Positions 49,652 through 54,451 of a stretch of DNA of 64,000 nt are shown here, piece after piece. The position numbers and the translations under genes are program-made. The notes under the pieces were generated by a model. The model searched no databases. It was given only the letters and a program-made list of their open reading frames with translations, and was not told the origin of the DNA. The DNA comes from Acutalibacteraceae bacterium (GTDB lineage: Bacteria > Bacillota > Clostridia > Oscillospirales > Acutalibacteraceae), in the NCBI GenBank assembly GCA_045612765.1, contig JAZKZS010000013.1, forward strand, positions 5,275 to 69,274. The letters are read 5' to 3'. The stretch's first letter is position 1; every line of letters begins with the position of its first letter.

Positions 49652-52600
49652 TTAAACAAACCTTACGTTGTCTTCAGTTAAAATTTCACACAATTCACGG
49701 TTTAATTCTCCACATTTTTTAACGTAAAGCGACCTTGGTGCTTCTAAACGCTTGCGCGTATCGTTACAAACGATATAAACGGGGGTGTCGCCCTTATATT
49801 TTGCCAAGGTTTCACGAATTAATGCAAAATTAGGGCTGGCTTGACTTTCTACCCTTAAATAAAGACCTGATTTCACCTTCGGTTTAATTTCTTGTTGGGT
49901 AGAGCCCTTTAAATTTTCGGGTATAAGATCAACCTTTTCAAGCACCAATTCAATATCCCTGTCTTCCCTTTCGGACACGCGGCCTGTTAAAATAACGGGC
50001 TTTGCATCGCTTAAAATGGATTTATAGGTTGAATAGGTATTGGCAAATGCCGTAACGTTAACCGATGCCGAAACGTCTTCAATTATAGCCGTACATAAAA
50101 GGTTGTTATTTTTAAGCTGTCGCACCTTTACTGCGCTTATAATACCTGCTACCGTTACACGCTTACCGTCGGGATATTTACCCATTGTAACTTCGGCTAT
50201 GCTTGTCATTTTTGCGTTTTTAAGAAATTCGGCATAATCGTCCATCGGGTGTCCGGTAAGATAAAGCCCTGTGGCCTCTTTTTCAAGTGATAACAGCACA
50301 TCCTTTGACATTTCAGGCACCTTTATAGGCCCGAAAACATTTGGGGCTCCCATTTCTTCAAACAAATTAAGCTGACCTTGTCCTGAAAAACGGCGTTCGT
50401 TTTCAACGGCTGATAAAACCGCATCGATATTATAAAGCATTTCACGGCGGTTATCACAAACACAATCCAAGGCCCCGCTTTTTATTAAACCTTCCAATGC
50501 TTTGCGGTTAAATTCACGTGAATAATTGCGAAGGCAAAAGTCGTAAAACGATTCATATTTGCCGTTTTCTTGACGTTCATTTATAAGTCGTTCTATAAGC
50601 CCAAGGCCTAAATTTTTAATTGCCAAAAGACCAAAACGAATGTTTTTACCCTCAGGGGTGAAATACTGCAAACTGTGGTTTACCGATGGTGGCAAAATTT
50701 TAATGCCCGTTTTATTACATTCGGCAGTATATTGCGAAATTTTAAGTGGGCTGTCCATCATACTTGTCATTAAAGCGGCAAAATATTCCGATGGGTAATG
50801 ACATTTTAAATATGCAGTGCGATAAGCTACAAAAGAATATGCACAAGCGTGAGCTTTGTTAAACGCATAGGATGAAAAGCTGGACATTTGTTCAAAAATT
50901 CTATTAGCGCTTTCTTCACTAATACCAAAAGCTAAAGCACCTTGGCTTATAACCTTGCCGTCCTTGTCTTTTTCACCGTAAAGGAAGAATTCCTTTTCCC
51001 TTTTCATAACGTCATGCTTCTTTTTAGCCATGGCACGACGAACAATGTCCGCACGACCAAGTGAATAACCTCCCAAAGCCCTAAACACCTGCATTACCTG
51101 TTCCTGATAAACAATACAGCCGTAGGTAATACCCAAAATTGATTCAAGCGCGGGTATATCGTATTTGATTTTATCGGGGTTGTGGCGGTTTTCAATATAC
51201 CTTGGGATAGAGTCCATAGGACCCGGTCGGTAAAGGGATAACACAGCCGTTAAATCTTCAATACTTTCAGGGTTTAACTGACGAAGAACATTTTTCATTC
51301 CGTCCGATTCAAACTGAAACACGCCAAGGGTTTTACCCTTCCCCATCATAGTATATGTCGCCTTATCGTCAAGGGGGATTTTTTCAATATCAAAATCAGG
51401 CTTATACTTGCGGATATAATTTTGGGTATCTTCAATAATGGTTAAATTTCGAAGGCCCAAAAAGTCCATTTTTAAAAGACCAAGCTCTTCAAGTGAGGTC
51501 ATTGTAAACTGTGTTACGGTAGCCTCATCATTAACTGCAAGGGGCACGTATTCGGCCACAGGCTTGTCCGAAATAACAACACCTGCCGCATGGGTTGAAG
51601 CGTGGCGGGGCATACCTTCAAGCTTAATTGCCATATCGATAAGTTCTTTAACGGCGGAATCGTTATTATAAAGTTCACGAAGCTCCTTACCGCCTTCAAG
51701 CGCACGGTCAATAGTCATACCAACTGCTTGAGGTATAAGCTTTGCAACCTTGTCGCACAGTGCATAAGGCACGTCCATAGCACGACCAACGTCACGTATA
51801 GCCGCGCGGGCGGCAAGTGTACCAAAGGTAACAATTTGAGAAACGTGGTCGTCGCCATATTTTTCAATAACGTAATCAATAACCTTTTGGCGATTAACGT
51901 AGCAAAAGTCAATATCAAAATCAGGCATTGAAACACGTTCGGGGTTTAAAAAGCGTTCAAAGTACAAATCGTATTTAATCGGGTCAATACCTGTAATACC
52001 AACACATTGCGCGGCAAGTGACGCCGCACCCGAGCCACGACCGGGGCCAACCGGAATATTATGTGTTTTAGCATAATTTACAAAGTCGGCTACTATTAAA
52101 AAGTAGTCAACGTAACCCATTTTATTAATAATTGAAAGCTCGTAATTTAAACGGTCGATATATTCCTGCTTGGGATTTTGACCGTAAATTTTATAAAGCC
52201 CGTCAAAGCATTTTTCTTTAAAATATTCAAAATGGTCATGGTCACCTATATCAAAGTGTGGCAATTTAATTTTACCAAATTCAAAGGTGACGTTGCATTT
52301 TTCGGCGATTTTATTTGTATTTTCAAGCGCTTCAGGGGTATTACCGAAAAGCTCCGCCATTTGTTCATGGCTTTTTAAATAAAATTCATTAGTTTTAAAT
52401 TCTAAAATATTATCCTCGGTGATTTTGGTTGCAGTTTGAATACACACCAAAACCTTATGCATTTTATAATCGTCTTCATTTATATAATGCACGTCGTTTG
52501 TGGCAACAAGGGGTATATCACATTCATTAGCAATGCGAATAATTTGAGGATTTACAAGCTTTTGCTCCCCAATGCCGTGGTCCTGAATTTCAAGGTAAAA

Positions 52601-53101
52601 ATCTTCCCCAAAGACCGACTTATACCAAAGTGCCGTTTCCTTTGCTTTATCATATTCGCCGTTCATTAAAGCACGGGGAATTTCACCCGCCAAGCAAGCC
52701 GAAAGACATACTAAACCCTTTGAATATTTTTGCAATAATTCACGGTCAACGCGGGGCTTTGAATAAAAGCCTTCGGGAAAGCCTGCCGACACTAATTTAA
52801 TTAAATTTTGGTAACCCTCGTTATCCTTACACAAAAGCACCAAATGGGTGTTACCGTCAAGCCCCTTTTGTTTATCAAAACGGCCACGGGTAGCGACGTA
52901 AACCTCGCACCCGATAATCGGCTTTACACCCTTACTAATAGCATATTTATAAAAATCTATCACGCCGTACATAACGCCGTGGTCGGTGATGGCAATACTT
53001 TTTTGACCCATTTCGGCCGCACGGTCTATAAGCTTTTTAATACGGGCGCAACCGTCTAATAAGCTATACTCGGTATGCACGTGCAAATGCGTGAAATTCA
53101 T
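49652..53101 (-). CDS. dnaE: DNA polymerase III alpha subunit (DnaE type)
   Basis: PHP-domain start FTHLHVHTEYSLLDG and a length of about 1150 aa. The ATG at 53101 lies 9 nt after AAGGAG. The ATG at 53110 abuts the SD and is less likely. Confidence 0.95.
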   Translation of the reverse strand: MNFTHLHVHTEYSLLDGCARIKKLIDRAAEMGQKSIAITDHGVMYGVIDFYKYAISKGVKPIIGCEVYVATRGRFDKQKGLDGNTHLVLLCKDNEGYQNLIKLVSAGFPEGFYSKPRVDRELLQKYSKGLVCLSACLAGEIPRALMNGEYDKAKETALWYKSVFGEDFYLEIQDHGIGEQKLVNPQIIRIANECDIPLVATNDVHYINEDDYKMHKVLVCIQTATKITEDNILEFKTNEFYLKSHEQMAELFGNTPEALENTNKIAEKCNVTFEFGKIKLPHFDIGDHDHFEYFKEKCFDGLYKIYGQNPKQEYIDRLNYELSIINKMGYVDYFLIVADFVNYAKTHNIPVGPGRGSGAASLAAQCVGITGIDPIKYDLYFERFLNPERVSMPDFDIDFCYVNRQKVIDYVIEKYGDDHVSQIVTFGTLAARAAIRDVGRAMDVPYALCDKVAKLIPQAVGMTIDRALEGGKELRELYNNDSAVKELIDMAIKLEGMPRHASTHAAGVVISDKPVAEYVPLAVNDEATVTQFTMTSLEELGLLKMDFLGLRNLTIIEDTQNYIRKYKPDFDIEKIPLDDKATYTMMGKGKTLGVFQFESDGMKNVLRQLNPESIEDLTAVLSLYRPGPMDSIPRYIENRHNPDKIKYDIPALESILGITYGCIVYQEQVMQVFRALGGYSLGRADIVRRAMAKKKHDVMKREKEFFLYGEKDKDGKVISQGALAFGISEESANRIFEQMSSFSSYAFNKAHACAYSFVAYRTAYLKCHYPSEYFAALMTSMMDSPLKISQYTAECNKTGIKILPPSVNHSLQYFTPEGKNIRFGLLAIKNLGLGLIERLINERQENGKYESFYDFCLRNYSREFNRKALEGLIKSGALDCVCDNRREMLYNIDAVLSAVENERRFSGQGQLNLFEEMGAPNVFGPIKVPEMSKDVLLSLEKEATGLYLTGHPMDDYAEFLKNAKMTSIAEVTMGKYPDGKRVTVAGIISAVKVRQLKNNNLLCTAIIEDVSASVNVTAFANTYSTYKSILSDAKPVILTGRVSEREDRDIELVLEKVDLIPENLKGSTQQEIKPKVKSGLYLRVESQASPNFALIRETLAKYKGDTPVYIVCNDTRKRLEAPRSLYVKKCGELNRELCEILTEDNVRFV

Positions 53102-53117
53102 AATTGCCATCTCCTTT

Positions 53118-53495
53118 TTATTTAATGCCTTCCCCTTGAGGGGAAGGTGCCGAATATAATGAGGCGGATGAGGTGGAAATATATCTTAATATTTCTTCAC
53201 AAACGCCTCTGAAATTATTATCCACATCATAATTTGAATATCTCAAAACAGTCAAACCTAATGATTTAAAATATTCATCTCTTGTTTTATCATTTTCTAT
53301 CCCAAGCGGTTCAAAATGTTGCGAACCGTCAAGCTCGATTATAAGCTTTGCCGAAGCACAATAAAAATCAACAATATAGCACCCTATAACCTTTTGGCGA
53401 TTAAAATTCACAGATAATCCTTTTAAAAAATCAAACCATAAATGTCTTTCATGTCTTGTCATATTACGACGAAGTGTTTGTGAATTACGAGTCAA
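53118..53495 (-). CDS. DUF559 endonuclease-domain protein (Vsr/restriction-endonuclease-like fold)
   Basis: The stretch LRRNMTRHERHLWFDFLKG...NRQKVIGCYIVDFYCASAKLIIELDGSQH...LTVLRYSNYDV matches the DUF559 pattern. An in-frame ATG at 53519 with an SD lies 8 codons upstream but is cut off by a TAA at 53496-53498. Confidence 0.8.
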   Translation of the reverse strand: MTRNSQTLRRNMTRHERHLWFDFLKGLSVNFNRQKVIGCYIVDFYCASAKLIIELDGSQHFEPLGIENDKTRDEYFKSLGLTVLRYSNYDVDNNFRGVCEEILRYISTSSASLYSAPSPQGEGIK

Positions 53496-53568
53496 TTAAG
53501 GATTATTAATTGTGTTCATTTAACACCTCATCCGTCACTACGTGACACCTTCCCCTCAAGGGGAAGGC
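53127..53568 (-). mobile_element. hairpin-bounded DUF559 cassette (putative selfish mini-element)
   Basis: There is a perfect 23-bp terminal inverted repeat: 53127-53149 is the reverse complement of 53546-53568, and each copy forms a CCTTCCCC/GGGGAAGG hairpin. A second inverted pair lies inside (53165-53175 vs 53524-53534). The only ORF inside is a DUF559 endonuclease. Confidence 0.55.
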
Positions 53569-54451
53569 TTTGTTCGTAAATTTCAATAATCTTATTTAGC
53601 CTGTGATTAAGTCCCGAAACTGTAATAGGTGTGGGTGAAATTTTGCAAAGCTCTTTAAGTGTTGCTTCGGGGTTGTTTTTACGCAAAAGCGCCGCGTCCA
53701 AAAGCTCTTGCGGTAGGCTTAAAAGCCTGTCCGCCTGTTCTAAATATTCAATGGCGGTGCGCTGCTTTAGTGAAGCCTCAACCGTTTTTGTAATATTTGC
53801 ATTATCACAATTTCGTTGGCGGTTAATTTTATTTTTAACACTTTTCATTATTTTAGCATCCATAATTTCAAGTGTGCGGTTAGTGTCGCCCATAAGGGTT
53901 AAAAGGTCCTCAATCATACTGCTGTCTTTAGTGTAAAGCACAGTAGCAGTTCCCCTTTGGGTTTTCTTCATAAAAATATCATACTGCTGTAAAAGGTTGT
54001 CCAAATCGTTTGCAAGCGCTTCATTTTTAACCGAAAATTCGGCACGGTATTCTTTTTCGGGGTCGTTAATATTACCGCAAGCCAAAAAAGCACCGCGAAT
54101 AAAGCTTAAAGGGCAACATTCCCTTGTAAAAAGACTGCGGTCAATAACCGTATCACTAATGCCAAAGTCGATAAGCGCCAAAATTTTAAGTCGGTCAGAG
54201 GCCGATTCCACCTCGGCTTTATATGTAGGTCTTTTACTGCCACCACAGGTAATTTTAACCTCGGCACCATAATTGAACTTAATTAAATCGGCATAGGCCT
54301 TGGCAACATTTTCGTTACCTGTTTGAAGGGCTATTCTTTTTATGCAAAAAGACCTTCCGAAAAGCATAAACCCATATATATATGACGGCTTACAGCAGGC
54401 GGATGGTCTTATGGCGATAAGTTCGTTTTTAACGTCGCTACAAAAGGACAT
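53528..54451 (-). CDS. whiA: DNA-binding protein WhiA
   Basis: Has MSFCSDVKNELI and a C-terminal HTH (ELCKISPTPITVSGLNHRLNKI). The last 13 codons run into the cassette repeat. Confidence 0.9.
   Translation of the reverse strand: MSFCSDVKNELIAIRPSACCKPSYIYGFMLFGRSFCIKRIALQTGNENVAKAYADLIKFNYGAEVKITCGGSKRPTYKAEVESASDRLKILALIDFGISDTVIDRSLFTRECCPLSFIRGAFLACGNINDPEKEYRAEFSVKNEALANDLDNLLQQYDIFMKKTQRGTATVLYTKDSSMIEDLLTLMGDTNRTLEIMDAKIMKSVKNKINRQRNCDNANITKTVEASLKQRTAIEYLEQADRLLSLPQELLDAALLRKNNPEATLKELCKISPTPITVSGLNHRLNKIIEIYEQSLPLEGKVSRSDG

Follow-up and report, generated by a model that had tools for sequence, protein, structure and literature searches.

An old hairpin-armed DUF559 nuclease cassette at the whiA-dnaE junction of an Acutalibacteraceae bacterium and its relation to a family of mostly gene-less arm repeats

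The junction between whiA and dnaE in an Acutalibacteraceae bacterium is occupied by a 442-bp cassette in which a DUF559 gene is enclosed by two inverted, hairpin-forming arms. The DNA analyzed, referred to as the window, is a stretch of 64,000 nt (GenBank assembly GCA_045612765.1, contig JAZKZS010000013.1). All coordinates are given within it, L-numbers designate compared loci of other genomes or viral contigs, and P-numbers designate homologous proteins. The features described here lie on the minus strand. The cassette (53127-53568) consists of two inverted arms of the C type, defined below, around the DUF559 gene, and is located at the last codons of whiA (53528-54451, Pfam WhiA). The dnaE gene (49652-53110), coding for a PHP-type DNA polymerase III alpha and also confirmed with Pfam, lies immediately downstream. 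The DUF559 open reading frame (ORF; 53118-53495) has 125 codons and a TTG start. It is the sole ORF inside the cassette, in agreement with a first-pass annotation of this DNA that had found no transposase or integrase in the unit. Pfam searches of the cassette found only DUF559, with no match to Y1_Tnp (HUH/Y1 transposase) and no DDE-type transposase, and neither an invertase nor a recombinase was found in or beside it.

The repeats reported by the first-pass annotation were reproduced. The segment 53127-53149 is the exact reverse complement of 53546-53568, giving a perfect 23-bp inverted repeat, and the symmetry extends beyond it to 26 nt at 96%. The 23-mer has only these two sites in the window when up to three mismatches are allowed, and matches were found in 0 of 100 shuffles. 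Each copy is itself a hairpin with an 8-9-bp stem, and as single-stranded DNA each end of the cassette folds into two adjacent hairpins (z-scores of -3.4 to -4.6). In the whiA-proximal arm, at the 5' side of the gene, hairpin A (53546-53568) has the sense core CCTTCCCC-TTGA-GGGGAAGG. The small hairpin GTCAC-TAC-GTGAC at 53534-53546 is hairpin B, which reads GTCAC-GTA-GTGAC in the sense direction, with a GNA triloop closed by a C-G pair. The box CGGATGAGGTG (53524-53534) follows, and forms a perfect 11-nt inverted pair with box' (CACCTCATCCG, 53165-53175) in the dnaE-proximal arm, at the 3' side of the gene. This second arm is completed by a degenerate B' module (53150-53164) of the GCC-GA...GA-GGC type, also found in L054, L102 and L028, and by hairpin A' (53127-53149), which ends 16 nt upstream of the first dnaE ATG.

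Two reading frames run into the arms. It had been proposed that whiA stops 8-32 nt before the unit. Instead, whiA runs through the right hairpin, which is translated as LPLEGK, and stops at a TGA (53528-53530) inside the inner repeat; the resulting WhiA ends in ...EQSLPLEGKVSRSDG and has 11 arm-encoded residues more than its orthologues. On the other side, the DUF559 ORF reads through the left repeat and ends in ...STSSASLYSAPSPQGEGIK. Its last ~17 codons are arm sequence, with box' translated as TSS and hairpin A' coding for the C-terminal PSPQGEG. The proposal that the inner right repeat provides a GAGGTG Shine-Dalgarno sequence for the gene was correct in that this box, the complement of box', serves an ATG at 53517-53519 in the DUF559 frame, but an in-frame TAA at 53496-53498 separates that ATG from the 125-codon ORF. 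This upstream frame (53496-53519), an ancestral ATG plus seven codons ended by the TAA, reads MNTINNP*LTRNSQ..., and the TTG comes right after the stop. The 97% identical homologue P0001 has a Lys at the position of the stop codon, P0001-P0005 read MNT.NN.KLT, and 106 of the 120 closest homologues start upstream of the position of the TTG. The window copy thus carries a nonsense mutation at codon 8, a change of Lys-8, and because of it this copy is impaired or decaying; re-initiation might take place at the TTG. No promoter belonging to the cassette was seen. Neither the DUF559 nor the WhiA protein of the window was on record in an exact-protein look-up.

A Pfam profile search assigned the ORF (53118-53495, minus strand) to PF04480 with E=1.2e-30 (106 bits against a gathering cutoff of 20.6, profile positions 4-108 of 109), in accordance with the DUF559 identity initially proposed. 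The closest solved structure by sequence is PDB 3hrl (E=1.5e-14). An AlphaFold2 model had a predicted local distance difference test (pLDDT) score of 76 overall and ~90 in the core, while the arm-encoded tail was below 50, residues 117-133 being disordered. When this model was compared with known structures using Foldseek, the target-normalised template modelling (TM) scores were 0.77 for 3hrl, 0.74 for 3r3p, the catalytic domain of I-Bth0305I, and 0.56 for 1vsr. As modelled, the protein has a Vsr-like PD-(D/E)XK nuclease fold. Residues D51, E62, D64 and H68, invariant in 40 homologues, form a D...E-x-D-G-x-x-H motif that is predicted to be catalytic and reads VDF...IELDGSQH in the window protein. 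The match to NCBIfam PRK09767, the E. coli YcjD equivalog, was below its cutoff (72.6 bits against 218), which by sequence places the protein in the YcjD superfamily in a different orthologue group. PADLOC and PHROGs returned marginal nuclease matches only, and since the PADLOC matches were marginal no known defence system is indicated. There was no close relative of the protein in the phage and plasmid reference sets, where two phage matches were 45-52% identical and all plasmid matches were below 46%. The DUF559 family as a whole comprises 19,123 representative clusters at E<1e-3. The 120 closest homologues are 60-97% identical to the window protein; 95 of them have a PSPQGEG-type tail and 107 have the TSS motif. 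Since the ...TSS...PSPQGEG tail arises when the inner box and outer hairpin are translated, these numbers indicate that the hairpin travels with the gene.

Comparison with relatives showed that the cassette was inserted into the end of whiA. Empty sites were found in L001 and L002 (WhiA 84% identical), where the whiA-dnaE junction is uninterrupted, WhiA ends in ...EQIK*, and dnaE begins 14 nt on. When the block G-CCTTCC...GGAAGG-C was excised in silico, a single A being ambiguous, the window regained the sequence GAA CAA ATT AAA TAA, which codes for ...EQIK* and matches P0126; compared with the empty site, the target duplication is 1 nt at most. WhiA orthologues are mostly 296-297 amino acids long and end in ...IEIYE-x-x-K, whereas WhiA in the window has 307, and the 307-residue form with the arm-encoded tail is common to the closest two clusters only. 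Units of this kind are also present in other genomes, one downstream of tex and another in the groES-pepF interval. With empty sites and other loci at hand, the element is neither fixed at this junction in all relatives nor confined to it. The idea of a small insertion raised by the first-pass annotation thus held with respect to the empty junctions, but not as a recent hop: the orthologous copies at whiA-dnaE (window, L145 and L146) are separated by 0.84-1.03 synonymous substitutions per site (dS).

The state of the junction varies among relatives. In L146 the cassette is intact. In L003 (WhiA 93% identical) the left junction is the same and the 5' arm is intact, while the DUF559 body is deleted and the right hairpin is broken. 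L145 (GCA_054275675) has a cassette with the left hairpin split by a 60-nt insert, and behind it a second arm-bounded cassette (L145:3403-4126) that carries an Imm11 gene (PF07791, polymorphic-toxin immunity) instead of DUF559. Because the Imm11 gene sits between arms, arms can frame cargo other than DUF559. In L004, from a more distant species, a degenerate hairpin at ...ENEK|PSP* is followed by a 175-amino acid ORF (L004:3943-4470) with no Pfam or NCBIfam match, a tail-less DUF559 gene, a 115-nt gene-less pair of arms, and dnaE. In a neighbour-joining tree of WhiA, the window, L145 and L003 formed one filled clade, and L004 and P0139, which have a third junction type (...LKASP*), belonged to a distant clade among empty relatives. 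Since the tree sets different junction types apart among empty relatives, at least three separate events struck the last ~10 nt of whiA.

L146 and L003 have, on either side of the element, diverged copies of ~24 nt from the 3' end of whiA. These could go back to a long target duplication of some age, or to one-sided homologous recombination that left a scar. In these two loci (L146:655-735 and L003:3617-3690) an AT-rich simple repeat, TTACGCATTACGAATTACGC, comes after the whiA-end duplicate (IEIYEQS..); this segment is missing from the window, and a repeat in L255, ATTATGCATTATGC, resembles it. In L054:3075-3330 a pair of arms lies between near-perfect 19-20-nt direct repeats reaching into a half-hairpin, GGGGAAGC. 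They could represent a target duplication or a local duplication beside an older arm remnant. A second filled/empty pair was sought at tex and given up: Tex relatives of 90-93% identity have rearranged intergenic regions and no clean boundary. The tex-downstream spacer, which holds the DUF559 cassette in L125, contains in L253:4195-4320 a different palindromic element of ~110 nt, GTGTCTCACTAAAGG ... CCTTAGTGAGACAG, with an inner hairpin CTCCCTC-GTCA-GAGGGAG. In L254 only CTCAAGGATGAGGTGTTTT is left in that spacer, and this may be a footprint.

To place the arms of the window, a 20-nt hairpin query (CCTTCYCCTCAAGGRGAAGG) was scanned over one genome per species, which gave at least 120 stretches in five phyla, and over viral contigs, which gave 98; the resulting set comprises 218 loci and ~390 arms. 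The genome hosts, among the matches listed, were Clostridia, Negativicutes, Bacteroidales, Bifidobacterium and Cloacimonadota. The unit of the family is an arm of ~45 nt composed of hairpin A, with the consensus (C/G)CTTCYCC-TTGA-GGRGAAG(G/C), hairpin B, and the box (G/T)GATGAGGTG, which doubles as a Shine-Dalgarno sequence and is conserved in the ~390 arms. Among the matches listed, 191 of 209 A hairpins (91%) have the box GATGAGGTG within 75 nt, a bond unlike that of generic terminator hairpins found after unrelated genes. Two strictly coupled types of arm were recognized: a C..G base of the stem goes with GGATG in 304 of 307 cases and a G..C base with TGATG in 70 of 71. Elements pair a G-type with a C-type arm (n=29) or two C-type arms (n=10, the window included), and none has two G-type arms.

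Arms are far more often gene-less than gene-bearing. A DUF559 gene was nearby in 13 of the 120 genome blocks (among the matches listed) and in one of the 98 viral blocks; of 41 paired elements, again among the matches listed, 33 have centres of 16-76 nt and five have DUF559. Most arms occur in gene-less doublets of 115-180 bp or as solo arms, which are common. Most of the gene-bearing copies are flanked on both sides (window, L005, L016, L035, L037, L107, L125, L135 and L146). L073 keeps the first ~25 DUF559 codons, and together with L003 it represents a deletion intermediate linking the full and the gene-less forms; the inverted repeats are common to gene-bearing copies, gene-less copies and intermediates. 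At least two separate arm blocks were found in six assemblies (among the matches listed), and the window has two arms in 64 kb. The 8.7-kb L155 has nine arms, and L170:1-11160, a viral contig with portal, capsid and tape-measure genes, has four intergenic solo arms on the same strand. Arms may be carried between hosts by phages. A covariance scan against Rfam, run at permissive E-values on the window region and two gene-less mini-elements of L063, gave best scores of 19-27 bits against gathering thresholds of 37-80, and a literature search found no paper on such cassettes. The arms are apparently an undescribed repeat family, similar to repetitive extragenic palindromic (REP) sequences or to miniature inverted-repeat transposable elements (MITEs), whose only protein is the DUF559 nuclease.

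Some arms are found in other arrangements. The viral loci L167:8150-8450 and L171:600-900 contain tandem arrays of ~113 nt in which arms are combined with another palindromic unit, GTAGGGGCGA..TCGCCCCTAC; relatives of this unit (GGGCGACC..GGTCGCCCCTAC) adjoin arms in L050, L102 and L156. The mosaic make-up of the two arrays resembles that of the bacterial interspersed mosaic elements of E. coli. In L029:985-1500 (Cloacimonadota) there are two arms in direct orientation without hairpin B (A + TTGG + GATGAGGTG), which supply the ribosome-binding sites of a 30%-identical DUF559 gene and of an unrelated gene.

The structure of the arms is under selection. In 45 ungapped arms, 98.1% of the cells were paired, against 82.5% after shuffling and 50-58% when the partners were slid; double-sided changes occurred in 80 cells against 25 expected, a number reached by none of 500 shuffles. 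Compensatory variants of the A stem, CCTTCTCC/GGAGAAGG and GCTTC../..GAAGC, were present in other copies. Hairpin B had 136 different sequences in the genome set (among the matches listed), its sequence being free while the pairing is kept, and its stems in the same set contained 635 Watson-Crick pairs, two G-T and one A-C. The near absence of wobble pairs argues against RNA as the selected molecule. The loops are also informative. Those of hairpin B are mostly GAA, GCA or GTA closed by a C-G pair, the complementary TNC loops being absent, and hairpin A has a TTGA loop in 328 of 388 arms (both among the matches listed). C-G-closed GNA triloops are unusually stable DNA mini-hairpins. The GNA loops are confined to the strand that has its 5' end at the terminus of the element, which indicates that this is the structured strand at both ends. 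Gene-less doublets fold into a four-way junction composed of two stems, the outer A:A' and box:box', and the hairpins B and B', with z-scores of -6 to -8. Doublets lie between genes whether these are in tandem, convergent or divergent, and the orientation of arms is not biased with respect to the neighbouring genes (42:38 for viral and 34:26 for genome loci, among the matches listed). An RNA-level element was rejected for now in view of the low number of G-U pairs (2 of 643 stem pairs), the DNA-type GNA loops, and the lack of orientation bias. A hammerhead ribozyme, considered because of CUGAUGAG in the G-type box, was rejected as well: the box pairs with its complement and no GAAA core follows.

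The cassette at whiA-dnaE is old, vertically inherited and under purifying selection. At the dS values given above for its orthologous copies, the ratio of nonsynonymous to synonymous substitution rates (dN/dS) was 0.07-0.08. Over the same divergence, the 5' arm was identical at 43 of 45 positions, both changes being in hairpin B. The 3' arm of L146 has a wholly different B' module, which suggests that arms are exchanged with other arms. Recent transposition was rejected since the identical proteins P0017 and P0026 were each found in one context only; as they are fixed at single loci across contigs, the system is long-lived and mostly vertical at the species level, yet it is patchy and decaying in places.

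More distant DUF559 genes have repeats of their own. A 41% identical DUF559 gene of Deinococcus proteolyticus is enclosed by an inverted repeat of 56 nt at 95% that contains CCTCCCCC-GCAA-GGGGGAGG, and this repeat travels with DUF559 in four species (L150:328-800, L250, L251 and L252). There the gene lies antisense within the 4-hydroxyphenylacetate (hpa) operon, and its position with respect to an oxidoreductase gene varies slightly among the four species. E. coli ycjD (L149:351-395) is preceded by a perfect 19-nt palindrome, TCACCTCATTCTGACAAGA / TCTTGTCAGAATGAGGTGA, that ends 5 nt before the gene and pairs CACCTCAT with the ribosome-binding site ATGAGGTG, a box pair as in the Clostridial arms; no matching inverted repeat flanks this gene. 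The association with arms is clear for some DUF559 subfamilies.

The arms and the cassette were compared with known systems. As in REP sequences, their doublets (REPINs) and the associated RAYT transposases (Bertels & Rainey 2011, PMC3116915; PMC3337134), short structured palindromic units are present as singlets and as inverted doublets with short spacers, one small nuclease-type gene is flanked by inverted units, and the hairpins have the hallmarks of single-stranded DNA recognition. The RAYT gene is also vertically inherited, confined to a single locus and under purifying selection, as is the DUF559 copy. The two systems differ in the enzyme, a HUH/Y1 transposase there and the Vsr-fold PD-(D/E)XK hydrolase DUF559 here; in the arm, which here consists of two hairpins and a box doubling as a ribosome-binding site; and in the hosts, which for the arms are gut Bacillota, Bacteroidales, Bifidobacterium and their phages. 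REPIN-RAYT systems have tens to hundreds of units per genome, matched to one cognate gene; the window has two arms in 64 kb. The doublets also resemble bacterial MITEs (Correia/CREE, RUP, ERIC and the Rickettsia palindromic elements) in being intergenic, 115-180 bp long and bounded by terminal inverted repeats, in including internal-deletion derivatives of a gene-bearing parent, and in being translated when they land in a reading frame, as in the WhiA and DUF559 tails. In contrast to those elements, a DDE transposase is absent from the DUF559 parent, short target-site duplications of regular length were not found (38 of 42 elements had no flanking direct repeat), and the hairpins that make up the terminal repeats vary in sequence but keep their pairing.

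Recognition elements defined by the hairpin structure of one strand rather than by sequence are known from the ends of IS200/IS605 and from integron attC sites, and the matching traits of the arms are the freely co-varying B stems and the strand-specific loops. However, the cassette has no HUH transposase or tyrosine recombinase, and its ends are inverted copies whereas IS200/IS605 and attC have same-strand left and right ends. Vsr-like (EDxHD) homing endonucleases such as I-Bth0305I share the catalytic fold (PDB 3r3p, with the target-normalised TM score given above), and they too are small, selfish-looking genes between conserved genes of the same strand with filled and empty alleles. DUF559 here is without the long DNA-binding N-terminal domain of the I-Bth0305I type, and its homologues are at many unrelated loci, mostly packaged with arms that also occur independently. 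E. coli Vsr and Caulobacter VsrA (PMC12907096) share the DUF559/Vsr fold and the D...E-x-D-G-x-x-H motif with the window protein, but here no cytosine methyltransferase is linked in the unit and the gene is set in inverted hairpin arms, dispensable, and patchy among close relatives.

We favor the interpretation, with a probability of a little under 0.6, that the arms and the gene constitute a REPIN/RAYT-like or MITE-like system with a Vsr-fold nuclease, of which the window contains an old, vertically inherited, hairpin-armed DUF559 cassette. This interpretation joins the insertion at the end of whiA, the anatomy and dispersal of the arms, their deletion derivatives and the selection on gene and arms with a nuclease that, by analogy with RAYT and REP/REPIN, would act on the arms and thereby maintain or spread them. 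The full element is two inverted arms around the Vsr-fold PD-(D/E)XK DUF559 gene, and the common gene-less doublet two arms around 16-76 nt. An element of the first kind entered the last whiA codons in an ancestor of the lineage, displacing the whiA stop. DUF559 is most likely read from the whiA-dnaE transcript, as no promoter of its own was seen. A ribosome-binding site is supplied by the inner box of the 5' arm, and box' of the other arm, being complementary, can pair with it. In extruded or single-stranded DNA, the nuclease would recognize arms that have folded into hairpins or into a four-way junction, and the copying would be completed by replication and repair of the host. Insertion could proceed by structure-specific nicking followed by replication or repair, by gene conversion between arms, or by staggered nicks leading to the long duplications of L146 and L003.

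Several observations weigh against this interpretation. No direct sign of recent movement was found. The identical proteins P0017 and P0026 remain at one locus each in 10-24 metagenomic contigs from many samples, and strong purifying selection at a fixed locus is as compatible with a gene useful to the host as with a selfish gene. No flanking direct repeat indicative of a target duplication was present in 38 of 42 elements, and the long duplications of L146 and L003 (~24 nt) and of L054 (19 nt) are ambiguous in this respect. Arms framed an Imm11 gene in L145. Tails resembling arms were found in only ~20 of 150 diverse DUF559 representatives, and the link may hold for sub-families only. Lastly, PD-(D/E)XK nucleases hydrolyse DNA, and we know of none that carries out strand transfer alone.

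The strongest rival explanation, which we nevertheless regard as unlikely, is that DUF559 is a solitary Vsr-like nuclease serving the host in very-short-patch mismatch repair or defence, the arms being unrelated REP-like repeats moved by other means or a recruited expression module made of a ribosome-binding site and its anti-Shine-Dalgarno partner. A repair role is considered mainly because of Caulobacter VsrA, a DUF559 protein that acts as a methylation-linked Vsr-like nuclease and is tied to cytosine methylation and DNA damage (PMC12907096). The low dN/dS over a dS of ~0.9 at a fixed locus and the single fixed loci in other species and in the Deinococcus hpa operon agree with such a role; the ycjD palindrome, pairing CACCTCAT with ATGAGGTG without a flanking inverted repeat, the mostly gene-less arms, and the direct-repeat arms of L029, which are ribosome-binding modules of two genes, are in line with an expression module. 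Yet the gene is absent at the site in most close relatives and dispensable, being deleted in L003 and interrupted by a nonsense codon in the window, and no methyltransferase is present in the unit. An unrelated origin of the arms also fits poorly with deletion intermediates that join gene-bearing to gene-less elements, with the 95 of 120 homologues that read into an arm, and with a distant subfamily that has a different but equally long inverted repeat. A free-standing homing endonuclease specific for the whiA-dnaE junction, spreading by cleavage of empty alleles and recombinational repair and carrying the repeats incidentally, seems improbable. Filled and empty alleles exist among relatives, there are at least three junction variants within ~10 nt of the whiA stop, the whiA 3' end occurs twice around the element in L146 and L003 and could be a recombination scar, and the second-best fold match is to the homing endonuclease I-Bth0305I. 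Nevertheless, close homologues (66-71% identity) have other, unrelated sites, one downstream of tex and one in the groES-pepF interval; the conservation of the arms does not depend on what flanks them, and they occur without the gene hundreds of times; and, given that ~120 lineages of WhiA were looked through, a small number of hits at a single permissive intergenic site is close to what chance would give if arms are common.

Two other explanations appear very improbable. An invertible DNA switch operating through the 23-bp inverted repeats would account for their perfection and for the report of Milman et al. 2023 (PMC9881135), who list DUF559, without comment, as enriched, with an odds ratio of 14.3, among the targets predicted for programmed inversion. 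That enrichment follows trivially from inverted repeats overlapping coding sequence, as expected from the inverted arms. Besides, the orientation relative to the neighbours was the same in the window, L145, L146 and 20 contigs of two other loci, no inversion polymorphism was seen among the compared copies, and no invertase is present in or beside the unit. Slightly less credible still is that the hairpins serve neighbouring genes as ordinary intrinsic terminators or to stabilise RNA, their symmetry being a coincidence. The right hairpin is terminator-like on the plus strand, which is the antisense one, and a T-run follows many copies, while the hairpin next to dnaE, read in the sense direction, has ATTAAAT rather than a T-run behind it. 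The attachment of A hairpins to the box and hairpin B (91% among the matches listed), the unrelated sequences of the other GC-rich hairpins in the window, the absence of an orientation bias relative to transcription, and the doublets between divergent genes all speak against terminators.

A separate observation concerns dnaE, which has two in-frame ATGs, at 53110 and 53101. Because an AAGGAG is correctly spaced for the second only, the annotated 1152-amino acid ORF probably starts three codons too early.

The arms add translated tails to neighbouring genes, as in the 11 extra WhiA residues found here, give rise to artefacts in assembly and annotation, and show where essential operons tolerate insertions. 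To our knowledge, hardly anything has been charted of REP-like repeats in gut Bacillota. Among the nuclease families described as of 'unknown function', DUF559 is one of the large ones, and, if the link between gene and arms is functional, it would acquire a testable role. A functional link would also provide a second, mechanistically different long-lived partnership between a nuclease and a repeat beside RAYT/REPIN, and would explain why DUF559 or endonuclease domain-containing genes appear as false or unexplained targets of programmed inversion. A wider proposal, which we put forward tentatively and consider less likely than the interpretation favored above, is that DUF559 nucleases are the dedicated enzymes of an unrecognised class of hairpin-armed repeats of bacteria and phages, an analogue of REPIN-RAYT in which subfamilies co-evolve with their own arms, such as the Clostridial CCTTCCCC and the 56-nt repeat of Deinococcus. 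Such repeats would be mobile or persistent and would be recognized as folded single-stranded DNA or four-way junctions. If DUF559 proteins are dedicated arm enzymes, a function would be assigned to a large family for which none is known.

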